A DNA stretch of 32,000 nucleotides from Chlamydiota bacterium (GCA_016196885.1 JACPWU010000046.1:30001-62000); one strand, 5' to 3'; positions 1,353 through 26,496 are shown, counted from the first letter of the stretch. The notes: generated by a model not told the origin, from the letters alone. Numbers and translations: made by a program.

Positions 1353-2237
1353 CTACACGCTCATTCGATCTAAAATTTTTACATCTCCACTTAAGAAAGC
1401 CTCAATAAAGCCTCCCTCTCTTCTTAAAAGCAAAGCCCCTTTCGCATCCGTTCCCAAAACAGTCCCCTCCCATTTTTTATCACTCACCTTCACCTCTACC
1501 CAATGTCCGACAAGTGATGAAAGCCTGGACCATTGAGACAGAAGAAAATCGTACTCCTGATTCTGGAGATGCTCATAAGTCTTTTCTAATTGTAGTAGTA
1601 ACTCTCTCACAAGAACTGTTCTGTCCCATAAATGTCCACTGAGCATCGCCAAAGAAGTGACTGTTTTTTGGATATCTTCAGGGCATTCAGAAGAATCCAT
1701 ATTCACATTAAGTCCGATACCCACAATCACATGCTTGACCTCATTTTTTTCGGATTTCATCTCTGTTAATATTCCTGCCACCTTTTTCCCTTCCACATAA
1801 ATATCATTCGGCCATTTAATGAAGGCGTGAAAACCCTCTTCCCGTAAAAGAGAAGCCACCGTAACAGAGCTCATGACAGTGATCAAGGAAACCTCTTCGA
1901 GCCGTAGCGAAGGCCTCAAAATTAAAGACAAAAGAATGTTCTTGCCCTTGGGTGAAGACCAAGACCGCATCATCCGTCCCCGTCCTTGCCTTTGATATTG
2001 CGCCAAAATGACAGTGCCTTCAGGAGCTCCTTTCTCAGCGTATTCTCGAGCTACATCGTTGGTAGAATCCACTTCATCTTCAGAAACAATCTTACAGCTG
2101 AAGGATCCTTCTTTTAACCCAGATTTTGCAATAGACGCGAGAACCGAGACGCAAGAGCTTGAGCCAGATTGGCCTGAAGAAAACGGAGGCATGCAAAAAT
2201 TTGCCTGTCGAGTATTTCTGAAGGTCAAGATGGCCAA
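1353..2237 (-). CDS. birA: Biotin--[acetyl-CoA-carboxylase] ligase (group I BirA); start codon uncertain
   Basis: VDSTNDVAREYAEKGAPEGTVILAQYQRQGRGRMMRSWSSPKG matches the BirA signature (STN...GRGR.GR.W.S). The listed start at 2237 is a TTG. Residues 1-41 are encoded by a MITE copy (2114-2253). Alternative starts are ATG 2192 (inside the MITE) and GTG 2072. Confidence 0.85.
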   Translation of the reverse strand: MAILTFRNTRQANFCMPPFSSGQSGSSSCVSVLASIAKSGLKEGSFSCKIVSEDEVDSTNDVAREYAEKGAPEGTVILAQYQRQGRGRMMRSWSSPKGKNILLSLILRPSLRLEEVSLITVMSSVTVASLLREEGFHAFIKWPNDIYVEGKKVAGILTEMKSEKNEVKHVIVGIGLNVNMDSSECPEDIQKTVTSLAMLSGHLWDRTVLVRELLLQLEKTYEHLQNQEYDFLLSQWSRLSSLVGHWVEVKVSDKKWEGTVLGTDAKGALLLRREGGFIEAFLSGDVKILDRMSV

Positions 2238-2253
2238 GATCTTGCGTCGAATT
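2114..2253. mobile_element. Truncated copy of a ~170-bp MITE (left TIR present, right TIR missing)
   Basis: About 138 bp match 16865-17002 with roughly 5 mismatches by hand alignment, in the same orientation. It lies between the nadC stop (2268) and the conserved part of birA. Confidence 0.8.
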
Positions 2254-5234: not shown

Positions 5235-5489
5235 ACCATGACCGCAACACAATTTGCGAGAAATTTTCGAAAGGTTTTGGACCAACTCGAATTTATGGGA
5301 GAAGAAGTGATGATCGTACGCAATCATCATAACGTAGCCCGTATTATTCCTGGTTCTCCCCATCTCACTGCACTAGAAGCACTCGCAGATCTTTACCGCA
5401 CCCTCCCAGAAGATGCAGCTAAAAACTGGCTCAAGGAAAGTCGCATCCCTCATACCTTGAAAGAAATGAGAAACCCATGGGCGTCTTGA
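5229..5489 (+). CDS. Type II antitoxin (Phd/YefM-like) of a VapC toxin
   Basis: 86 aa. The N-terminus MTATQFARNFRKVLDQL...VMIVRNHHNVARIIP is typical of Phd/YefM-type antitoxins. It overlaps the downstream PIN gene by 13 nt. Confidence 0.75.
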   Translation: MITMTATQFARNFRKVLDQLEFMGEEVMIVRNHHNVARIIPGSPHLTALEALADLYRTLPEDAAKNWLKESRIPHTLKEMRNPWAS

Positions 5490-5896
5490 TCGACACCTGT
5501 ATTTGGATTGATGTTGAGCGCGGAAAATTGTCTCCTGCGGATGTTGCCTCCTACACGGGTAGGGAACCTATTTTTATTTCTCCCATTACCATCGCTGAGC
5601 TTACCTATGGGATCGAACAAGTGAAAGGCAATCGACGCCTCTACGAATTACGCTTGGCCGCATTAAGTCGCTTACGCAAGAAACCTTCTCTTTCTATCGA
5701 TACCACAACAGGCGAAATCTTTGGTCGACTTGCATCTTATTTAACAAATCACAAACGCAGTCATCATTTTCGAGTCCAAGATTTATGGCTTGCAAGTCAG
5801 GCGATTCAACAAGATATGAATCTTCTCACCTATAACGAAAAAGATTTTTCTGATATTCCGGGCCTTGATTTGACATTGATAAAGCCCAAGAATTAA
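5477..5896 (+). CDS. vapC: PIN-domain ribonuclease toxin VapC
   Basis: VLIDTCIWID (first acidic PIN residue), ISPITIAEL, and C-terminal LLTYNEKDF. 139 aa, translationally coupled to the antitoxin. Confidence 0.85.
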   Translation: MGVLIDTCIWIDVERGKLSPADVASYTGREPIFISPITIAELTYGIEQVKGNRRLYELRLAALSRLRKKPSLSIDTTTGEIFGRLASYLTNHKRSHHFRVQDLWLASQAIQQDMNLLTYNEKDFSDIPGLDLTLIKPKN

Positions 5897-8632: not shown

Positions 8633-9025
8633 TTATTTTATCTTGAGGTTTAAAATAAAATCCCTAATCTCAGAAAACATCTTGAAGGCGTTCGCCGCGT
8701 CCTTTTTATGAGGCAAACCATCAGGCAAAGAACCCGGAAGAGCATCAGGATAACGAGTCGGAATATAAAACTTATCTAGCTCACGAAAGAAATCTTTAAA
8801 CTCACTGAGGCGTGGCTCAAGTGAATGAGAAAAAGTAAAAAGCTCTAAGAGACTATGCGTCTTGTGAATAGGTCTATTGCGAATAAACAAAAAACCCTTC
8901 AGAAGTTTTTCCACACCTTGTTGAGCATGAAAACATGTCTGATTATAGATCTCGTCCTCAAGAGCACTCTGAGCCATATGATAGTCCTCGTCCGCAAAAT
9001 TGAACCACGGATTATTTACGCTCAT
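8633..9025 (-). CDS. HEPN domain protein (toxin half of an MNT-HEPN pair)
   Basis: 130 aa. CFHAQQGVEKLLKGFL and the YIPTRYPD motif are typical of classical HEPN. It overlaps the upstream MNT gene by 14 nt. Confidence 0.8.
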   Translation of the reverse strand: MSVNNPWFNFADEDYHMAQSALEDEIYNQTCFHAQQGVEKLLKGFLFIRNRPIHKTHSLLELFTFSHSLEPRLSEFKDFFRELDKFYIPTRYPDALPGSLPDGLPHKKDAANAFKMFSEIRDFILNLKIK

Positions 9026-16018: not shown

Positions 16019-17899
16019 CTAGGCGGAACACTCGCCCTTTTTAGCTTCAAGGCGGTAATCCTGATCCGAGCCCCAATCCTTGTATATTTCAGGGGCCTCG
16101 TCTGGAGGGGGAACAAGTGCGAAGGGATTTAATTCGTTTCGAACTTTTTCGAAACCTATTCTCTCAAAAAAACTCTGCAGACTTTCATCTGAATTTCTAT
16201 GTCCAAGATAGAACCTTAAAAGATGGGTCACCGCCTCAGGAACTTTTCTCGCCGGGACTGACAGAATATTTTTTGCAAATTGGGCCCTGCCTTTTTCTGT
16301 AAATCCCCCCGTCATGATCTGATAATGGGGAACCACCCGTCCATGGAGAGTCCGAGACGCTCCGTGAAATCCTAAATCTGCAATGGAGTGCTGACTGCAG
16401 CCATGGGGACATCCGGAAACCTTAAGTCGAAGTTTAAATATCTCAGAATCATGGCTCAAGCCATTGCTAAAAATTTTTCCGAGTTCTACCGCCAATCCCC
16501 TCGAGCGAGTAATGGCCGAAATGCAGCTATCAGCACCCGCACAACGGGTAATATCCATCACATGTTCTGCACAACAATCAGCAAGATCCGCTGATTTCAA
16601 CTCACGGTAAAGAAAGGGAAGATCATCCTGATGAACCCATCGCAAGAGAAGATTTTGTGTAATGGTTGTTCTCACCCGTCCTTCGCAAAACCGGCGGGAT
16701 ATCTCAGCGATTCTTCTCAATTGAGAGCCCGTAATATCTCCCAGAAAACAGCGTATAAAAACAGAACGAAATTCTGCCTGTTTTTGGGAAAGGGTGTTAT
16801 GGTGCTCCCATCTTTCGAATTCAGAATTTTTGAGAAAGGCGTCTTTTTTGAAAAACCCCGATTCAACCCAGATTTTGCAATAGACGCGTGAACCGAGACG
16901 CAAGAGCTTGAGCCAGATTGGCCTGAAGAAAACGGAGGCATGCAAAAATTTGCCTGTCGAGTATTTCTGAAGGTCAAGTGCCCCAAGATCTTGCGTCGAA
17001 TTCCGCGGCCTATTGCAAATTCTGGGTTCAACCCTCTTTGGCGCTTCTTCAATCTTTTCAAGGAGATCCGTCCCCCCTTTTTGGAAGAGAATTTCTTGCC
17101 GGACAGATTGAACCGCCTCCTTAAAACGTTCGATCCCCCAGTCCTTGATCAAAAACTTCAGCCTTGAGCGATCCTTGTTTTGGCGGCTTCCATGCTGGTT
17201 AAACACCGCAAGAATAGCCTGAAAGGTGATAAGCAAGAACTCCGCCGGTGTGAAATTTTCAAGGAGCTGGGCCTCCCGCGGTGCTCCCCCCAGCCCCCCT
17301 CCTACATATACTTCAAAACCACGGATCGCACCCCTCATAACCGCAAAAACGCCAATGTCATGAATCATGGCATGAATATGATCCGCAGGACATCCTTCAA
17401 AGGCAATTTTGATTTTTCTGGGAAGACCCTGCGTCAGGGGATTTCTTAAAAAATATTTGCTTACTGCTTGCGCATAAGGCGTAACATCAAAGAGCTCATC
17501 CCGAGCAATACCTGAAAATGGACAGGTCGTAACATTTCGGACGCCATTTCCGCCCGTTTCACGCGAGGTAAGATCCACATCCGCCAAAGAACGCAAAACC
17601 TTCATCAAATGATCTTCACTGATCCCATAAAGTTCCAGACCTTGGCGAGTGGTCAAATGAACCCCCTTAATGGCACTATACTCTTCAGACAAATCCGCGA
17701 CCCGCTCCATTTGAAGAGGTGAAAGCATCCCCTGAGGGATTTTGATCCTAATCATATATTTGTCAGAGGTCCCGCGGTAGGAATAAACACCCTGCCAAAC
17801 CCTGACCTTTCGAAATTCTTCAAAATCCAGGCGGCCCTCCATAAAATGGTTGAACGAAATCTCGAACCGATCCAGTTCCGCTTGTGAAGTATTCTTCAT
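16019..17899 (-). CDS. sir: Ferredoxin-type assimilatory sulfite/nitrite reductase (siroheme-[4Fe-4S]) with an in-frame MITE insertion
   Basis: Two NIR_SIR half-domains. The Cys cluster motifs are TRCAGADSC (C-x5-C) and SGCPHGC (C-x3-C) in the C-terminal half. About 58 extra residues (RICNRPRNSTQDLG...CKIWVESG) between the halves are encoded by the repeat element. Confidence 0.8.
   Translation of the reverse strand: MKNTSQAELDRFEISFNHFMEGRLDFEEFRKVRVWQGVYSYRGTSDKYMIRIKIPQGMLSPLQMERVADLSEEYSAIKGVHLTTRQGLELYGISEDHLMKVLRSLADVDLTSRETGGNGVRNVTTCPFSGIARDELFDVTPYAQAVSKYFLRNPLTQGLPRKIKIAFEGCPADHIHAMIHDIGVFAVMRGAIRGFEVYVGGGLGGAPREAQLLENFTPAEFLLITFQAILAVFNQHGSRQNKDRSRLKFLIKDWGIERFKEAVQSVRQEILFQKGGTDLLEKIEEAPKRVEPRICNRPRNSTQDLGALDLQKYSTGKFLHASVFFRPIWLKLLRLGSRVYCKIWVESGFFKKDAFLKNSEFERWEHHNTLSQKQAEFRSVFIRCFLGDITGSQLRRIAEISRRFCEGRVRTTITQNLLLRWVHQDDLPFLYRELKSADLADCCAEHVMDITRCAGADSCISAITRSRGLAVELGKIFSNGLSHDSEIFKLRLKVSGCPHGCSQHSIADLGFHGASRTLHGRVVPHYQIMTGGFTEKGRAQFAKNILSVPARKVPEAVTHLLRFYLGHRNSDESLQSFFERIGFEKVRNELNPFALVPPPDEAPEIYKDWGSDQDYRLEAKKGECSA
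16862..17031. mobile_element. Full-length ~170-bp MITE with ~23-bp terminal inverted repeats, inserted in-frame in the reductase gene
   Basis: The left TIR is ttcaacccagattttgcaatag and the right TIR is ctattgcaaattctgggttcaa. An internal second inverted repeat is gacgcaagagcttg / caagatcttgcgtc. A second copy is at 2114-2253. Confidence 0.8.
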
Positions 17900-18352: not shown

Positions 18353-20515
18353 TTATTGAACTTGGATAGAAACTTTTGAACAAGCCCCGCTTTCATCATT
18401 GACACGGATATCGTGAAATCCCACTCTGGGTGTCCAGAATAGAGATTCTTCCGAATGGGCCTTTCCGATAAACGTTCCATCCACAAACCACCATCGCCAA
18501 GAGTGAGGTTCTCCCCCATTTGATTTGAGCGTTATTTTTTGATGCGCTAGAGATGCGTGATCATCTATGTAGAATTCCTGATTGTGCGCAATAGAAGCAA
18601 TGACCAGACTTCTCTCCCCTTTTTCTAATTCTAAAGATTTTGTTTTTTCATCCGGCACTGAGGGCCATTCTTGAATTTTAGGATGAAGGTTGTTTAGCAA
18701 TCGAAGCGCAAGAGGCGCAGCCAAAGTCTGACCAACCAATTCGTGAGATCCCTTTCCGGAGGTATTTCCCAGCCATACCACAAGGGTAAATTGAGGTGTG
18801 ACCACGGCACACCAAGCATCTTTATGATCACTGCTGGTTCCCGTTTTCCAGGCTGGATGAAAGAGAGCGGCTTCAGGACATATTCTTTCTGTTCTCTTTG
18901 AATCGCTTAAAACATTCAGAACTTGCCAGCAGGCTTTGGAAGAAAGAATAGATTTTTTTTCAAGGGCGAATAAGTCGCGCTTATAACCCCTCCTACTCCC
19001 CTCAAGATTTTCTAGTCCCTGTGGGATTAAAAAAAAGGGGAGAGTCTCCCCTCTTAGTGTAAGAGGGGTTGGGGGAGTTACATCATTTTTAGATTCCTTT
19101 GAAGTGTGTATAAACTTTACTGGAACATGAAAGCCCCCTCGCCCCAGAGTCGCATAAGCCTCTGCCATTTCAAGAATGGATGCCTCTGCCCCACCAATAG
19201 CCAAAGACAATCCATATTTTTCAGGAGCCTGAGACAATTTTTTAAAGCCTGCTCCCTCCAGGATACCCAGGACACGAGGGATTCCCACTTTAGACAACAA
19301 CATCATCGCAGGGATGTTCCGGCTCTCTCGCAAAGCCTCTCCTGCAGTGATAGGACCTCGAAACATTTCATCATAATTCTGAGGCGTATAACCTGTCCAA
19401 GCAATGGGCTGGTCTTTCAAAAGCGTGCTGGGCGTACACAAGCCCATTTCAAAACTCGCAGCATAGATAAAGGGTTTAAGCGTTGAACCTGTGGAGTAAG
19501 AGCGTCTAGACAAATCCAAAACATTTTTCTCTTTTGTGAGGCTGATCGAGGCAAGACATTCTGCCGTTTGAGTATTTAAAAGGACAATCGCCAACGTATT
19601 AATATCAGGCGAATGAACCTGGTTGAATACCTCTCTCGCTGTCAGAGTGAGTTGCTCTTGAAAATTTGAATCCAATGTTGTCGTGATTTTCCCTTGCCGA
19701 AACCATTCCTTTAAAGTCAGCAAAAAAGGAAGCGCTGAGTCATGAGCTGCATGGGGCAAGGAATGCCACACCGCTTGAACGGGTTCGGATAACGCCCTTT
19801 GATATTCTTTTTCTGAAATCATTTTTTGATTCCACATTTTGAGAAGCACATGATTGCGCCTCTTGAAGGCACGCTCTGGAAACAAATCCGGACGATAACG
19901 GTTCGGACTTTGGGGTAGACCCGCCAAAAGAGCTGCTTGGTTTAAGGAAAGATCGCGGCAGGAAAGATCAAAATACCTCCAACTCGCTGCGCCAACACCC
20001 ATAAGGTTTCCGCCCATGGGACAGCGATTTAAATACTCGAGAAGAATTTCTTTTTTACTCATCTTTTTTTCTAACTGATAAGCCCGAATGGCTTCGATCC
20101 ATTTAGACTTAAAGGTTCGAGATTTAGGATGACGAAGATGCTCGACTTGCATGGTGAGAGTACTGGCGCCTCGAACAATTTTTAAAGCTTTCACATCCTG
20201 CCAAAGGGCTGCTGCAACGCCCAGCCAGTCAACGCCTGAATGCCCATAAAAACGACGATCTTCAATCGCCACAATCGCTTGATAAAGATAGGGACTTATT
20301 TCTTTTTCTTTTAAGGGGAAATACCATTCGTCATTTTCTGAAACAAAGGCAGCCAGCGCTTTTCCATGAGCATCTTCAATCCACAAGCTAGGAGGAGGTG
20401 CAACATGAGGAGGAAGTGGCACATAAGCAACAGCCAGAAGAAAAGAAAAATAGCCTGATAATAAAAGGCTCGTTATGGATGTTAAAAAAATAATCAGTCG
20501 ATGATAATGTTTCAT
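18353..20515 (-). CDS. pbpC: Penicillin-binding protein 1C (glycosyltransferase/transpeptidase)
   Basis: GT51 motifs (EDRRFYGHSGVD, GASTLTMQ), transpeptidase STGSTLKP (SxxK) and WKTGTS (KTG), and a C-terminal PBP1C-type domain (WWFVDGTFIG...HDIRVNDESG). It lies directly downstream of the A2M gene. Confidence 0.9.
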   Translation of the reverse strand: MKHYHRLIIFLTSITSLLLSGYFSFLLAVAYVPLPPHVAPPPSLWIEDAHGKALAAFVSENDEWYFPLKEKEISPYLYQAIVAIEDRRFYGHSGVDWLGVAAALWQDVKALKIVRGASTLTMQVEHLRHPKSRTFKSKWIEAIRAYQLEKKMSKKEILLEYLNRCPMGGNLMGVGAASWRYFDLSCRDLSLNQAALLAGLPQSPNRYRPDLFPERAFKRRNHVLLKMWNQKMISEKEYQRALSEPVQAVWHSLPHAAHDSALPFLLTLKEWFRQGKITTTLDSNFQEQLTLTAREVFNQVHSPDINTLAIVLLNTQTAECLASISLTKEKNVLDLSRRSYSTGSTLKPFIYAASFEMGLCTPSTLLKDQPIAWTGYTPQNYDEMFRGPITAGEALRESRNIPAMMLLSKVGIPRVLGILEGAGFKKLSQAPEKYGLSLAIGGAEASILEMAEAYATLGRGGFHVPVKFIHTSKESKNDVTPPTPLTLRGETLPFFLIPQGLENLEGSRRGYKRDLFALEKKSILSSKACWQVLNVLSDSKRTERICPEAALFHPAWKTGTSSDHKDAWCAVVTPQFTLVVWLGNTSGKGSHELVGQTLAAPLALRLLNNLHPKIQEWPSVPDEKTKSLELEKGERSLVIASIAHNQEFYIDDHASLAHQKITLKSNGGEPHSWRWWFVDGTFIGKAHSEESLFWTPRVGFHDIRVNDESGACSKVSIQVQ
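18983..19080. repeat. G/C-arm palindromic element inserted in-frame in pbpC
   Basis: It has C-rich (aacccctcctactcccctc) and G-rich (gaggggttgggggagtt) ends and inner hairpins ccctctta-gtg-taagaggg and gggga-gagtc-tcccc. It encodes about 33 aa (TPPTPLTLRGETLPFFLIPQGLENLEGSRRGY) upstream of the KTG motif. Confidence 0.6.
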
Positions 20516-20629: not shown

Positions 20630-23600
20630 TCAATTCTTCGAAGAAATCGTCAGCGTCTCTCCTGCCCCAAAAAGACTGTTGATCGAAATGTCATACATAC
20701 ACTGCGCTCGAACAGGGGGAATCGTGAAGGTTCCAGGGGTAATCGCCCTTACAAGATACGTGTAGGTTGCCCGGCCTTTGGACATTTTTCCATAAAGAAC
20801 CAGACGATCATCTCGAATATCTACTCGACTGTCGACAAAAGCAGAAACTGCGTCAGGATTTGACAGCTGAGCTGTTGTATTGAATCTGGGGTTTTCAATC
20901 TCGAACCCGGCTGGTAGAAGATCTTCAATCACAAGATTGTCATAAGTAATCGTCGTTTCCAAATCGAGCTCTACCTGAATCAAGTCTCCGCTCTTGATCT
21001 CGTTCATAGATAAAGGCTTTCCGTTTTGATCCAGGTATTTTCTGCGAATGGAAATCCCATGATCCTCATTTTTGGGAGCTTCTTTGGATACACCTGTTAC
21101 TGTCCATGAAATATATCCTTTTGCCTGTTCAGACCCTTGAATTTTCACAAGAAAATTTTTTCCGATCACGTCTTGATTTAAAGAAGTCCAGGAAAGAGCC
21201 TCTCCTCCTTTTGTCTCTAGGATTTTTTCAGAATCAGACCCTAGCTCGCAAGAGGCAAAAGGCTCACCCATATCCACTTTTTCTAAATATTGTCCCAGCG
21301 CCATCAGAGCAAAGGCATAGTCCTGGGTACTCCCCCATTTTTTATCATCCCCTGCTTGTGCAATTTCCTGAATCAGTTTTGGAATGGCCGCATTCTCTGG
21401 GTCTAATTCCATCAAGGCTTGAGCCAAAATAGACTGGTCACGAATTGGAGATCCAATGTTGCCTTCAAGCTCTCGACTCTGCCGAGGCCGAGCGAAATCC
21501 TGAGGAATGAGATCCATCGCAAGATCGCGGCGCCCCGCGTAAAACCAGGCCAAGGCCAGGTAAAAGCGCGTGGAAGGATAAATCTCATGTTCTGATACAA
21601 CAGGATTTTTGAGCAACTCTTCGAGACGAGTCATGATGGAACGTTCTGGTTTTCCAGCCTTGGCCAAGACAAAACAGGCATAAGCCTGAATTTCTAAAGT
21701 ATCGGGATTGTCACTTGTTTCCTTCATTAACTTTTGCAAATAAAGAAAAAGCCTGTCCCGAAAATCTAGTGGGATCTCATAACCTAAACTTTCAGCCTCC
21801 ACCAGAAAATGTGCTGCGTAAACACTGGCCCAAGGCCATATCTCACGGTACCCTGGCCACATTGCGATCCCGCCATCAAGCGTTTGCATGCCAATGAGTC
21901 GCGTAATCGTGGTATCTACTCTTTGAGTTACATATTTTTTCTCGAATAAATCCGGAAAAAATTTCTCCCCCACTTTTGTAAGCCCTATCAGAGGGAAAGC
22001 CGTACTGAGGGTCTGCTCTGCGCATCCATGCGGATATTCATTGAGATAATTCAGGGCGTTCACAATGTTAAACGTCGAAAAAGGGAAAACGCGTATATTA
22101 AGCTGCGCCGTTTGGGAAACCCATTTTTCAGGAATTTTGATTTCCATGGGATGACCCGGCGTCACAGTCGCATCACTTCCAACAGATGTGATGGGGTAAG
22201 GGGGACGCACAGGTAACTCTAATTCTTGCGTGTATTTTTCTCCATTTAACTCAGCTTCAATGTAAAGATGCGCCGTTCCCATTGCTTCACCTGCTTCTAA
22301 AGGAATGGACAAAGTGACTTGCCCTCCATTTTCCATCAATATTCCCCTCCCTAGATGGGAGGGGTTAGGGGAGGGTGGATTCAAATCTCCCCCCTCCCTA
22401 ACCCTCCCCATGGTTTCCGTCTCTCGACTCCAACCACTCTCTCGTCCACCCGCAAGCGGGTACCCGGACTCGGTCGCAAGGGGGAGGGAACTTTTCGAAT
22501 TCTTCTCTGAAGAGTTTGTGAAACGAAGCACTGCTTTTTCATCTTTCAACTCAATAGAAAGATTTGCACTTCCCTTTTGCCCCGTATGATTGAAAAGGGT
22601 GATGGGCATTTCAAAATGATCTTTCATGGCTACAAATCGGGGAAGAGTTGTCTGAAACATCAGAGGGGATCTCACAATCATAGGCTGGTCCATGGCTCCG
22701 AAAAGATTGCCTGCATGAGCAATCACCATCACCCGCAGGCTTCCTGAAAACTCTGGAAGGCTAAAATGGGCGACGACTTTTCCTTTTGAATTGGAATGAA
22801 GAATTTTAGAAACTAAAGCAACATTTTGGATTCGCTGGGGAGAAACCGGTGACAAATGTCTTGGATTATATCCGCTGCCGTCTCCACCGACCGCACTTTT
22901 TGGATTTAAAGCAGGAATTTCAGGAAAAAGCTCGCTGTAAAGGTCCGACCCTGAAACTCCCAGTCCTCTGGTTTGATGAAAAAACTCAAAAGGATCCGGC
23001 GTCGAAAAATCCGTTAATTGCAAAATTCCCTCATCCACCAAAGCCAATGTCACAGAGGCATTGCAAACGGGCTCACCTGTTGGATTTCTCACTTCGACCG
23101 CTATCCTCACCTTTGTTTTTGGGCGTGCTTCCTTCGGGCCATCTACCTTAAGCAAAAGTTTTTCATCCTCATTCTCCACACGCAATCGGGTCACGCCAAA
23201 GGCCCGATGCATTTTCCAAGGGGCATCAGACTTCACAGGCTGAATCACTGTGGCCGACACATAAGCATTCGGACGAAACTCTTCAGTCATATCGATAGGA
23301 ACCGTTACATACGACTCCGTCATCTCTTGCACTTGATGAAAAATCACATGATCCGTTTCGAGGGTCAAAAGCAATGTCCCCGGAAAAGGACTGCGAATTA
23401 CGACTTCTGTCTTCTCCCCAACACGCACAGGAGAAATTTTGATTTTAAGTTCATCCGGTCTTTCTCGGCTGATAGAGTCTTCCCATCCTTCTCCCTCACT
23501 GACGTAAAATGACTCTGATGTCAGGGTTCCCATTTTGGGATCTCTGATAGAGACAACATACGATCCCCCGCCCGAAGGTGTGACAGCAACCTTCCCCTTC

Positions 23601-26347
23601 CCTTCTTTTAAGAGAATGGAGACAGACTGAACCTCTTCTAAAACACGAACGGAATCATACGAATAACTTCTATCCCGATACGTCAAAACATTGTTCCAAG
23701 TTTCTCTAAAAACTTTCACCTCAATTGAATCCAAAACCTTTGATATTTCTCCCTGACCTGTGACCGCAGCCACGTCAAAATCAGAAGGAGATCCTGGTGC
23801 CATCCTCCTAGATACGGGAGAACGAAGCGCCAAATAATAGGAAGGACCATCAATGAACAATTGCTCTGTCGAGCTCACCGCCCGCCCCCCCATTTCTTGG
23901 ACACTGCCTGTAACCGTCAAAAGCCAAGGGCCCGCATAAGAAAATGTTTTGTCCTTCATTTTAGAAAGAGAAGCCAAATCAAGTTCCCATTTTCCCTTGC
24001 CCTGTTCATCCAGCTTAATGGGAGGCAATTCAATCGATTGACCTTCAGGAAGAGGCACCCCAAATGTCTTTAAAGTTTCTGCGCTGTCTCCAAAGGTCCA
24101 ACCTTTCCATTTTTTCGAACGAAAAGAAGTGGGATCCAAACGTCCCGTCAAAGTCGCATCGCCATTTTTGGCCGGCTGGCCAAAAAGATAATCCCCTTTG
24201 ATTTTAGCCTGAAGGGATTTATCTGAAAGTTTGTAACGCCCGCGTTCAGATGGCCTTAATTTAAGAGCCATTTTCATTCGATTGGGAACAAATTCCTCTA
24301 CCAAAAATGAAGCCAATCCAAATTCTTCTTTCTCTTCCTTTCCAGATTTAGGAAGTCCCACGCAAACAGACCACCTCCCCGTCGGAATATCCTTTGGCAA
24401 CTTCATAGAAAGATGAGACATGCCATTGGAATCCATTTTGACCATACGTCCCTTCCACTCTCGACCCTCAGGTCTGTAAAATTGCCATTTCACTGGAAAA
24501 CTTTCAGGAACGGTAAGCTCTGAGCCTCGAACAATCGCCCAAAGATGAATTTTTTCTCCAGGACGGTAAGCCCCTCTCTCTGAATAGACAAAAGCTTCAT
24601 ACCCCTTTCTTAAATAAGGCGTTCCGGAAACATCAAAATTAGAATAAGAAAGCTGGCTTGACCTTAAATCAAGCCAGGTGAGACCTGTTTTTGAGGAATC
24701 AGAGGATGACAACTCTGCAACCACAATAGCAGGCCTCTCATCCTCCTTTATTTCTATTTTTTCTATTCTTGCCACCCCCTTTGAATCCGTAAGCGCCTCT
24801 CCTAAAAGTTGATTTTTATCCGAAAAAAGTTTAATTCTAACTTTTTCCATCGGTTTTGCAGTCGCCAAAGAAATTGCCCACACAAAAATGCCGCCTGAGA
24901 ACTGCTTTGCAACAAGGCCCACATCAGACAAGGTTACAACCGTAGAAGCCGATAAATAATAGTAGGCATCGTAAGTTCTATTTTCCTGATCTGGTTTTAT
25001 TTTAATTTCATAAACCCCATCTCGAGCGATATCCTTGGTGAGCAATTCATCCAAAGACAGGCGTATGTCTTGAATTTTATTTTTCTCCACATTTAACTTC
25101 AAAGATTTTTCAGCAACAACCTGACTCAATTGACTCAAGCCATACCACCTGCTTTCATAGACCGTATTTCTCCACGCCACAATGTTGTTTTCATACATTC
25201 TGGTCACAATCACCTTCACATTTTCAATATTCACCGCATGGGCCAGCACCGCCCGGTTTCCTTGGGAACCTAAATAGCCTTGTTCCTGTTCAAACCACAG
25301 TTGAGGTTCTCGATCATCAATAAAAACGCTAAAAAGATCCGAACGTGGATAAATCTTTTGGGAATTTGAAACAGCAGGTTTGGATATTTTTAAAGCATAT
25401 CTTTGCCCTGGGATGAAATCTCCTTCTAAACTTGCCCCAAACCATTCCTTCATGCATGTGAAAGGCACCTGAGGCTCAACCGAAAGCACTTCTTTAAGAA
25501 GCTCCGTATCCATGTTGTTGTTCGAGTAAAGACGAATCTTGATTTTTCCCCGTGAAGAAGAATAGGGTTCAACTCTCGTGATCATGAGTTGATTGCTTAA
25601 GACAAGCGTTGCTTCATAAGGAGCAGCCAGGCCCAAAGGACCACTCACCCCGCAAAGCCCCGCATCCAAATGAACCATCACCTGAGGAAAGGTCTCATGG
25701 TCTAGCTGTAGAAGAGGCGTTGGCTCTGTTATGATTCTGATGACATTCCCCGTACTTTCCCCATACAAATGGAAAGAGATGGCTTGATGATCCAAAGATT
25801 CCATTTTTAAACATTTCAGGGCTTCGGTAGATAAAACATTGTTGTTAAACTCGATCTCCAGCATAAATTGATCTCTTTCGTCAAAAGCCGCTTGGCGTAT
25901 GGAGATCACTTCAAGAGGCGCCGTCTTCACAGTCACCGAAAAAGAACTGTTTGAACATCCCTCTTTTGAAAGAAGAGTTTTTTCTGGCAAAGTAAATGTA
26001 AAAGGAGTGGTCTTTGGAAGGTCTATTTCAGGTGTAAAAGCGAGCTTTCTGGGACCCAGCCAATCCCAATGCCCCTGGACGAGATAAGGAGACTGAGAGG
26101 GTGTTTGAATCGTAATGGGAAGATGAGCAATCTCTGGAAAGTTTCGGTATTTTTCATCAATATCCAGATTAAATTCCCAAACCAGTATCGGTCGAGCCCC
26201 CACAACTGCATCTACCCCCGGACTAAATTTTATGACCTGCAAAAGATTTTCATTTTTAAACTGATTGAAATGAATATAACCCAACCAAGCCCCGATATTT
26301 GCTACCGCAAAACAAGAAACGGTCATCCAAAATTTTTTGCTCAACAT
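20630..26347 (-). CDS. yfhM: Bacterial alpha-2-macroglobulin (YfhM/ECAM-type, thioester-containing)
   Basis: ~1,905 aa with an N-terminal hydrophobic anchor (KKFWMTVSCFAVANIGAWLGYI) and long MG-domain-like beta-rich sequence. The thioester motif YPHGCAEQ (CAEQ) is at 22013-22024. It shows the classical pairing with a downstream pbpC. The start is set to ATG 26347 (GGAGA, 5-nt spacer) rather than GTG 26359. Confidence 0.9.
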   Translation of the reverse strand: MLSKKFWMTVSCFAVANIGAWLGYIHFNQFKNENLLQVIKFSPGVDAVVGARPILVWEFNLDIDEKYRNFPEIAHLPITIQTPSQSPYLVQGHWDWLGPRKLAFTPEIDLPKTTPFTFTLPEKTLLSKEGCSNSSFSVTVKTAPLEVISIRQAAFDERDQFMLEIEFNNNVLSTEALKCLKMESLDHQAISFHLYGESTGNVIRIITEPTPLLQLDHETFPQVMVHLDAGLCGVSGPLGLAAPYEATLVLSNQLMITRVEPYSSSRGKIKIRLYSNNNMDTELLKEVLSVEPQVPFTCMKEWFGASLEGDFIPGQRYALKISKPAVSNSQKIYPRSDLFSVFIDDREPQLWFEQEQGYLGSQGNRAVLAHAVNIENVKVIVTRMYENNIVAWRNTVYESRWYGLSQLSQVVAEKSLKLNVEKNKIQDIRLSLDELLTKDIARDGVYEIKIKPDQENRTYDAYYYLSASTVVTLSDVGLVAKQFSGGIFVWAISLATAKPMEKVRIKLFSDKNQLLGEALTDSKGVARIEKIEIKEDERPAIVVAELSSSDSSKTGLTWLDLRSSQLSYSNFDVSGTPYLRKGYEAFVYSERGAYRPGEKIHLWAIVRGSELTVPESFPVKWQFYRPEGREWKGRMVKMDSNGMSHLSMKLPKDIPTGRWSVCVGLPKSGKEEKEEFGLASFLVEEFVPNRMKMALKLRPSERGRYKLSDKSLQAKIKGDYLFGQPAKNGDATLTGRLDPTSFRSKKWKGWTFGDSAETLKTFGVPLPEGQSIELPPIKLDEQGKGKWELDLASLSKMKDKTFSYAGPWLLTVTGSVQEMGGRAVSSTEQLFIDGPSYYLALRSPVSRRMAPGSPSDFDVAAVTGQGEISKVLDSIEVKVFRETWNNVLTYRDRSYSYDSVRVLEEVQSVSILLKEGKGKVAVTPSGGGSYVVSIRDPKMGTLTSESFYVSEGEGWEDSISRERPDELKIKISPVRVGEKTEVVIRSPFPGTLLLTLETDHVIFHQVQEMTESYVTVPIDMTEEFRPNAYVSATVIQPVKSDAPWKMHRAFGVTRLRVENEDEKLLLKVDGPKEARPKTKVRIAVEVRNPTGEPVCNASVTLALVDEGILQLTDFSTPDPFEFFHQTRGLGVSGSDLYSELFPEIPALNPKSAVGGDGSGYNPRHLSPVSPQRIQNVALVSKILHSNSKGKVVAHFSLPEFSGSLRVMVIAHAGNLFGAMDQPMIVRSPLMFQTTLPRFVAMKDHFEMPITLFNHTGQKGSANLSIELKDEKAVLRFTNSSEKNSKSSLPLATESGYPLAGGRESGWSRETETMGRVREGGDLNPPSPNPSHLGRGILMENGGQVTLSIPLEAGEAMGTAHLYIEAELNGEKYTQELELPVRPPYPITSVGSDATVTPGHPMEIKIPEKWVSQTAQLNIRVFPFSTFNIVNALNYLNEYPHGCAEQTLSTAFPLIGLTKVGEKFFPDLFEKKYVTQRVDTTITRLIGMQTLDGGIAMWPGYREIWPWASVYAAHFLVEAESLGYEIPLDFRDRLFLYLQKLMKETSDNPDTLEIQAYACFVLAKAGKPERSIMTRLEELLKNPVVSEHEIYPSTRFYLALAWFYAGRRDLAMDLIPQDFARPRQSRELEGNIGSPIRDQSILAQALMELDPENAAIPKLIQEIAQAGDDKKWGSTQDYAFALMALGQYLEKVDMGEPFASCELGSDSEKILETKGGEALSWTSLNQDVIGKNFLVKIQGSEQAKGYISWTVTGVSKEAPKNEDHGISIRRKYLDQNGKPLSMNEIKSGDLIQVELDLETTITYDNLVIEDLLPAGFEIENPRFNTTAQLSNPDAVSAFVDSRVDIRDDRLVLYGKMSKGRATYTYLVRAITPGTFTIPPVRAQCMYDISINSLFGAGETLTISSKN
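22341..22490. repeat. Composite palindromic element in-frame in the A2M gene: a copy of the 20535-20616 element carrying a nested 66-bp insertion
   Basis: 22341-22410 and 22477-22490 align with 20535-20616. The extra 66 bp (22411-22476, with hairpin acccgc-aa-gcgggt) split the acaa loop of the third hairpin. The total is 150 bp = 50 codons (SLPLATESGYPLAGGRESGWSRETETMGRVREGGDLNPPSPNPSHLGRGI). Confidence 0.75.
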
Positions 26348-26496
26348 AGATGTCTCCACTCGTCTGTAATAAAAATTTGTTTCGAAAATTTTTCATAAAA
26401 TTTATGGAAATAAATCTGAACGGTTTGAGAAAGAGGGTCAATGAAAAATGAAAAATAATTTCAGACATGAATTAACTTATTGCACAGGAGGAAGTA

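Follow-up and report, generated by a model that had tools for sequence, protein, structure and literature searches.

Intragenic MITEs whose open reading frames (ORFs) are fused in frame with those of their hosts are described as 'not unusual' in a 2024 review, in which the Rickettsia palindromic elements (RPEs) stand as the extreme case (PMC10969869). The RPE families are specific to Rickettsia, and no transposase has been identified for them (Ogata et al. 2000, 2002, as summarised in PMC10969869); close to half of 44 copies are found in ORFs, and the encoded peptide is conserved (PMC10969869). CC..GG termini and 4-bp target-site duplications (TSDs) are hallmarks common to IS1380-family insertion sequences and to piggyBac (PMC10045372), and 5-bp duplications are on record for ISEcp1, a member of the IS1380 family (PMC2887853).

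We analysed a window of 32,000 nucleotides (44% G+C) from a groundwater Chlamydiota metagenome-assembled genome (MAG), in which a reductase gene is interrupted by a short palindromic element and yet remains open from start to stop. With bacterial MITEs, which are derivatives of insertion sequences, the element shares its short length, the lack of a transposase and its presence in several copies. CC...GG termini, terminal inverted repeats (TIRs) and a 5-bp TSD it has in common both with bacterial MITEs and with IS1380-family insertion sequences such as ISEcp1 and ISPme1. ERIC, Correia/NEMIS, QMITE1 and the Anabaena MITEs are likewise known from in-frame fusions within genes, and long RNA hairpins are typical of them; the window element differs in its insertion sequence parentage and in the phylum of its host. 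PiggyBac, a distant relative of IS1380 found in eukaryotes, has CC..GG ends and a TTAA target, which resembles the TTNAA preferred by elements of the window type. In contrast to piggyBac, the window element makes a duplication of 5 bp rather than 4 bp, resides in a prokaryote and is non-autonomous. The likeness to RPEs lies in a palindrome of ~100-170 bp that resides in frame within a housekeeping gene, whose ORF remains open and gains a peptide. Unlike RPEs, the window element has a clear parent family of insertion sequences and a TSD, it is known in three copies, and its peptide was found in no other cluster representative searched. Given the Chlamydiota host and the IS1380-type ends, membership of an RPE family is not expected. 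The best explanation for the locus, and one in which we have considerable confidence, is that a non-autonomous, IS1380-derived MITE inserted in frame into the linker of the reductase. The features of the locus are listed in Table 1.

Table 1. Coordinates of the reductase gene, the element copies and associated features, counted from the first nucleotide of the window.
Feature	Position	Strand	Description
birA-like ORF	1353..2237	(-)	first ~42 codons from copy 2, in the second open minus-strand frame
TTTAA by left end of copy 2	2113..2117		presumed TSD half; partner lost with the right end
MITE copy 2	2118..2253		corresponds to nt 1-136 of the 160-nt copy 1 (131/136 identical); lacks the final 24 nt and with them the right TIR
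Nitrite/sulfite reductase ORF, ferredoxin-type	16019..17899	(-)	626 aa; residues 292-346 = element + one TSD copy
TSD TTCAA, left	16862..16866		TTNAA 5-bp duplications also flank related short elements
MITE copy 1	16867..17026		160 bp, 50% G+C, CCCAG...CTGGG termini, near-complete palindrome
Left TIR CCCAGATTTTGCAATAG	16867..16883	(+)	identical to the end of IS1380-family elements L018 and L008
Internal inverted repeat and apical hairpin region	16897..16997		arms 16897-16915 and 16979-16997
Right TIR, reverse complement CCCAGAATTTGCAATAG	17010..17026	(-)	16/17 to the left TIR
TSD TTCAA, right	17027..17031		perfect 5-bp repeat of the left copy

The gene that carries copy 1 encodes a protein that combines both reductase halves with a four-Cys cluster and has the NirA/SiR fold. 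Pfam detects the two NIR_SIR_ferr/NIR_SIR halves (E = 2e-56 and 8e-35), comparison with solved ferredoxin-dependent nitrite and sulfite reductases gives a best E of 4.5e-41, and a Foldseek search with the model of the reductase matches 1zj8 at E = 1e-30. A first reading, made from the sequence only, had called the gene a sulfite reductase with two half-domains. Pfam agrees with the two halves, while the 'sulfite' part of the name, that is, the choice between nitrite and sulfite as substrate, is not secure, because the closest homologues adjoin either nitrate-assimilation genes (P0002 and P0005) or a sulfate ABC transporter together with a DedA/VTT gene (P0004). The window gene has a VTT neighbour too, and the NCBI product name is 'nitrite/sulfite reductase'.

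Comparison with homologues indicates that the segment is an addition. We aligned 11 homologues (43-62% identical, 561-593 aa), including five at 56-62% identity (569-574 aa) and a protein from another Chlamydiae MAG; in all 11, one long gap opens opposite the segment. The alignment with tobacco NiR behaves in the same way: the query moves from residue 282 to residue 359 while the chain stays at residue 375. The residues are thus missing from all 11 homologues and from a solved NiR, and they are extra residues in the linker between the two halves, as the sequence-only reading had anticipated. It had also placed the element between the two NIR_SIR halves of an ORF that reads straight through it; the ORF is indeed open throughout, and the Pfam spans flank the insert, with the first NIR_SIR domain at aa 117-265 and the second NIR_SIR_ferr domain at aa 372-436. 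The gain, put at about 58 aa in that reading, is corrected to 55 aa: the 160-bp element and 5 bp of duplication make 165 nt, or 55 codons, and the protein reads ...KRVE/PRICN...KIWVE/SGFF, where the slashes mark the ends of the insert. Excision of the 160 bp and one TSD copy restores a stop-free ORF of 571 aa (...APKRVESGFF...), which compares with 569-574 aa in the closest homologues. At the DNA level the closest orthologues are too diverged for an empty-site comparison; they contain no TIR and no element.

The element had been described as ~170 bp long with ~23-bp TIRs. The inverted repeats are real and the dimensions are smaller. The outer arms (16862-16883 and 17010-17031) are 22 nt long and 91% complementary, and the outermost 5 nt of each arm are the TSD, which leaves an element proper of 160 bp with 17-nt TIRs. 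The second, internal inverted repeat is present as reported, with arms of 19 nt and a complementarity of 84%. Folded as a whole, the element forms one long hairpin of -77.6 kcal/mol (shuffle mean -43.1, z = -10.2), and 0 of 200 shuffles are as stable. Copy 1 has the features by which MITEs are recognised, namely TIRs, a TSD, a small size with no transposase gene, and at least three copies in the genome. No transposase domain, and hence no cognate transposase, was found in the window ORFs scanned. We also considered whether copy 1 or copy 2 acts as a promoter or a terminator. This role was rejected, as the consensus sites are absent: no sigma-70-like promoter and no intrinsic terminator motif was found in or near either copy.

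The second copy that had been noticed in the window exists, and the five positions at which it differs from copy 1 comprise one single base and one 4-nt cluster. A third copy, known from protein alone, came from a search of a protein database with the three open-frame peptides joined end to end, which returned one protein, P0121, a 134-aa 'hypothetical protein HYS08_00880' encoded on a 55-kb contig. P0121 reads FNPDFAIDARTETQELEPDWPEENGG in the plus-strand frame, passes through a variant apical region and then continues in another frame to ...AAYCKFWVE, which corresponds to the right TIR. The genome thus holds at least two copies beyond that in the reductase, or at least three in all (16867-17026, 2118-2253 and P0121). 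This count is a lower bound, since P0001 itself was not returned and the word index is therefore not exhaustive. The accessions of P0121 (MBI1882749 and MBI3265656) and of the reductase (MBI1883327 and MBI3266934) belong to the same two series, which suggests that one organism, assembled twice, is the source of both proteins.

The identical insert-bearing reductase is present in both assemblies, on contigs of 67,210 and 67,284 bp. This bears on the concern that the repeat was misplaced into the gene when the metagenome was assembled, a concern raised by its length, which is about that of a read, and by the related insertion sequence ends that lie at contig breaks in other MAGs. The occurrence of the same product in two separate assemblies and the perfect 5-bp duplication of flanking gene sequence argue against such an artefact, as do the preserved frame and the clean excision product. 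We consider it highly improbable.

We looked for the origin of the element by scanning 185,579 species-representative genomes, a set that does not include the source MAG, with the 21-mer AACCCAGAWTTTGCAATAGRC. The scan returned 19 loci in Chitinophagaceae, Sphingobacteriales, Omnitrophota, Campylobacteraceae and a deltaproteobacterium, most of them 50-200 nt from contig ends. Two loci, L018 and L008, are complete elements of 1398 bp bounded by the same 17-nt end. Each encodes a 442-aa protein that matches NF033539, the IS1380 transposase model (230 bits against a cut-off of 180, E = 2.9e-68), and also PF13701. An IS982 parentage had been guessed from the 'AC' end and is ruled out, as the full-length elements encode IS1380 transposases. 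Three further loci hold short elements (166-173 bp) in which both ends are present, and a paired-end metagenome scan gave seven more of 165-173 bp, with the same ends and unrelated cores. These ten short elements (165-173 bp), from Bacteroidota, Campylobacterota and metagenomes, include six with perfect TTNAA 5-bp duplications. When the window copy is counted, 7 of 11 have a perfect 5-bp duplication, and all seven duplications are TTNAA (TTCAA, TTTAA or TTAAA); L030 has an apparent 4-bp duplication, TTAA. No exact match was obtained when the metagenome collection was scanned with a 22-nt core of the element.

The window element is thus a MITE of IS1380-family descent. Every point that could be tested agrees: its ends are common to transposase-encoding elements, its termini are CC...GG and its TSD is 5 bp. 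It differs from the IS1380-family insertion sequences themselves in having no transposase of its own and in its interior. The 126 nt between the TIRs of copy 1 (50% G+C) bear no relation to the full-length elements or to the remaining short elements, which are AT-rich. The window element is therefore a separate family built on conserved ends, and probably a lineage-specific one. In the literature searched, a limited set that is not proof of novelty, we found no description of IS1380-derived MITEs.

We propose that an IS1380-family DDE transposase, supplied in trans, recognised the CCCAGAWTTTGCAATAG ends. The 160-bp element would have entered a TTCAA site, at Val-Glu codons in the linker of the two homologous siroheme/[4Fe-4S] reductase halves, and the target would have been duplicated upon insertion. 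Because 165 is a multiple of three and the orientation and phase are stop-free, the reading frame is preserved and the product is longer by 55 residues. The central claim of the sequence-only reading, a MITE lying in frame in the linker between the halves, an undamaged Cys cluster and a second copy nearby, is well supported by these data. Its suggestion that the segment might be removed at the RNA level finds no support. Removal after transcription or translation, whether by a self-splicing intron, an intein or programmed bypass, would yield a mature enzyme without the segment, and the strong secondary structure is all that speaks for it. The segment matches no Rfam family at E<=1, group I and group II introns included; 160 nt is far below the size of an intron and 55 aa far below that of an intein; and the junctions, VE/PRI...WVE/SG, do not contain the Cys/Ser/Thr ... 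His-Asn+Cys/Ser/Thr motif. With no Rfam match, too small a size for a self-splicing intron or intein and the intein junction residues missing, ALTERNATIVES was excluded. The TSD and TIRs point instead to transposition at the DNA level, and we regard removal of the segment as exceedingly improbable.

Does the reductase still function? In the 12-sequence alignment all invariant columns are kept, including Cys453, 459, 497 and 501, so that the Cys cluster downstream of the insert is intact, as had been noted before. The insert falls in the most length-variable and least conserved stretch of this alignment. An AlphaFold2 model computed from it has a mean pLDDT of 79.3, and residues 293-353 are the sole long segment below 50. 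Compared with M. tuberculosis NirA, tobacco NiR and maize SiR, the model has target-normalised TM-scores of 0.70-0.79. The intact columns and the model are compatible with a tolerated surface loop and do not prove it. On balance we favour the interpretation that the additional residues form a flexible loop tolerated on the surface and that the enzyme probably still works.

The same insertion may instead have inactivated the gene and produced a cryptic pseudogene, whose ORF is open by chance, a third of such insertions being stop-free, and which has had little time to decay. Openness in at least two frames is a chance-level property, as described below. The copies are 96% identical and the event may be recent; with only five differences between copies 1 and 2, the insertion may be too recent for the decay of a dead gene to have begun. 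The added peptide is partly hydrophobic, contains two cysteines (Cys295 and Cys341) and has no homologue, and the mRNA hairpin of -77.6 kcal/mol could impede translation or attract RNase III. Assimilatory pathways are, moreover, often lost in host-associated Chlamydiae. The gene, however, shows no other lesion in 1.7 kb and has kept every invariant residue, the insertion lies where the alignment tolerates the most variation in length, and the allele is identical in the two assemblies. We view inactivation as possible but unlikely, and retain the tolerated loop as the preferred reading.

Copy 2 lies at the 5' end of a birA-like gene. Similarity to BirA homologues (45-58% identical) starts at ...GSFSCKIVSEDEVDSTN, directly past the element boundary. 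Upstream of this point, some homologues carry an HTH_11 repressor domain (327-343 aa, one of them a Chlamydiae MAG protein), and the others start with a short leader initiated by Met (255-276 aa). In the window nothing native is left upstream, and 14 nt separate the truncated end of copy 2 from the stop codon of nadC. The candidate start codons TTG 2237, TTG 2228 and ATG 2192 are all within the element; GTG 2072 is within the conserved motif, and there is no ATG, GTG or TTG between the element boundary and this GTG. NCBI calls on the identical sequence differ between the two assemblies, one giving 239 aa (GTG start) and the other 279 aa (ATG 2192). We infer that the likeliest history is insertion of the element by or within the 5' end of birA, followed by a deletion that took the right end of the element together with the native start. 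The element may now supply the birA start codon and 27-42 N-terminal residues.

The open frames of the element had been taken as the signature of an RPE. The frames themselves were read correctly: a second minus-strand frame of copy 1 is open as a 114-aa ORF (16717..17061), and one plus-strand frame is closed by a single TGA (16889-16891), which is AGA in copy 2. Thus copy 1 has two open frames, and copies 2 and 3 have three each. We compared this openness with controls. Two or more frames were open in 26% of dinucleotide shuffles of the 165 nt, in 55% of the palindromic control sequences and in 32% of the 165-nt segments cut from the window. The openness is therefore real but at chance level, and its use as a signature was rejected on the strength of the shuffles. 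An exhaustive HMMER search for the Sir-frame peptide among 1.84 billion cluster representatives, where insert-free representatives may hide carriers, gave no real match; the sole match, P0124, is an artefact of tandem repeats in which no stretch is aligned. The analogy with RPEs accordingly stands for the outcome of the insertion and extends neither to a family nor to a demonstrated coding propensity, as the openness is at chance level and the Sir-frame peptide recurs in no other representative searched.

A simpler account suffices, in which frame-keeping insertions are the likeliest to persist. The net length is a multiple of three, and no stop occurs in two of the six combinations of orientation and phase, or in three of six for copies that lack the TGA, so that a third or more of insertions into coding sequence stay open. 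At this rate, such an allele could survive without any special adaptation on the part of the element. We weighed this against an RPE-like, coding-adapted palindromic family, whose length and open frames were selected for spread inside genes and which adds peptide modules to proteins. The net length of 165 nt and the two open frames (three in copies 2 and 3) would fit such a family, as would the placement of two of the three known copies in frame with real genes, sir and birA, and the finding that, of seven cousin short elements with the same ends, none has a stop-free frame among the six or a net length that is a multiple of 3. But the openness is not significant against shuffles, and AT-richness alone explains the stops of the cousins. 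Furthermore, the three known copies are each read in a different frame, the Sir-frame peptide occurs in no other of the 1.84 billion representatives, and the three-frame search led to P0121 only. We consider selection of this kind improbable. Much the same doubt attaches to a Chlamydiae-specific family of coding-competent palindromic MITEs that has repeatedly added peptides to housekeeping proteins and given birA, once its native 5' end was lost, a new start and N-terminus, which we think a little less improbable. If it were true, RPE-like protein evolution would have arisen independently, from an IS1380 parent.

The locus is a clean example of a mobile element that adds a peptide to a protein; it is not unprecedented and does not represent a new kind of system. 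It presents a fully delimited bacterial MITE that adds 55 residues to a conserved redox enzyme at the seam of its two duplicated halves, with the empty site, the TSD, the ends and the parent family all defined. For annotation, the element accounts for an over-long reductase and for the inconsistent birA calls in two public assemblies. Its importance would rise if genic insertions were biased towards those that preserve the frame, or if the birA start were derived from the element. The linker of this siroheme reductase offers a natural test case for the length that such an enzyme tolerates. For the family, the comparison shows that IS1380-type ends have given rise to several unrelated families of short elements in different phyla.

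The native 5′ end of birA, including the start codon, is absent from the window, and the remaining ORF is fused in frame to the truncated MITE copy. An HTH domain is present in the nearest birA homologues; it was possibly lost along with the native 5′ end. Ahead of the conserved EVDSTN motif, start codons occur only within the MITE copy. Annotation of the same DNA differs between two public assemblies: 239 aa from a GTG in one versus 279 aa from an ATG within the element in the other.

Features of the window, in window coordinates
Feature	Position	Strand	Remark
birA ORF	1353-2237	(-)	in-frame fusion with MITE copy 2
Truncated MITE copy 2 with flank	2113-2253		14 nt from nadC stop
PIN-domain ORF	5477-5896	(+)	solitary; uvrB and valS on either side
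HEPN-domain protein	8633-9025	(-)	
PBP1C-type penicillin-binding protein	18353-20515	(-)	
Bacterial alpha-2-macroglobulin	20630-26359	(-)	~1,900 aa; adjoins PBP1C-type gene
UvrD/AAA_11/AAA_12 helicase-domain protein	26618-31861	(-)	portion of 3,561 aa; after alpha-2-macroglobulin

A nucleotidyltransferase gene, called in the locus L020, adjoins the HEPN gene on its upstream side, and the two form a toxin-antitoxin-like pair. The PBP1C and alpha-2-macroglobulin neighbours correspond to the known pbpC-yfhM pairing. These two genes and the helicase gene are unusual for Chlamydiae.

The closest homologues of the 626-aa reductase (P0001) occur in differing contexts. P0002 and P0005 are surrounded by molybdopterin nitrate-reductase-like genes, P-II proteins and an MFS transporter, whereas P0004 neighbours a sulfate ABC transporter and a VTT/DedA gene. 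Thus, homology alone is insufficient to assign the enzyme as a ‘sulfite’ or a ‘nitrite’ reductase. The word-indexed protein search missed P0001 although the query held an exact 56-aa stretch of it; short-peptide negatives from this search are best read as lower bounds.

The 17-nt end of the MITE, CCCAGAWTTTGCAATAG, is common to 1398-bp IS1380-family elements (L008, L018) and to several families of short elements, which are 165-173 bp long and mutually unrelated (L001, L010, L015, L024-L030). Elements with these ends reside in Bacteroidota, Campylobacterota, Omnitrophota and metagenomes. They insert preferentially at TTNAA and duplicate 5 bp; in one element the duplication resembles a 4-bp TTAA. 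This target habit recalls piggyBac, the eukaryotic relative of IS1380.
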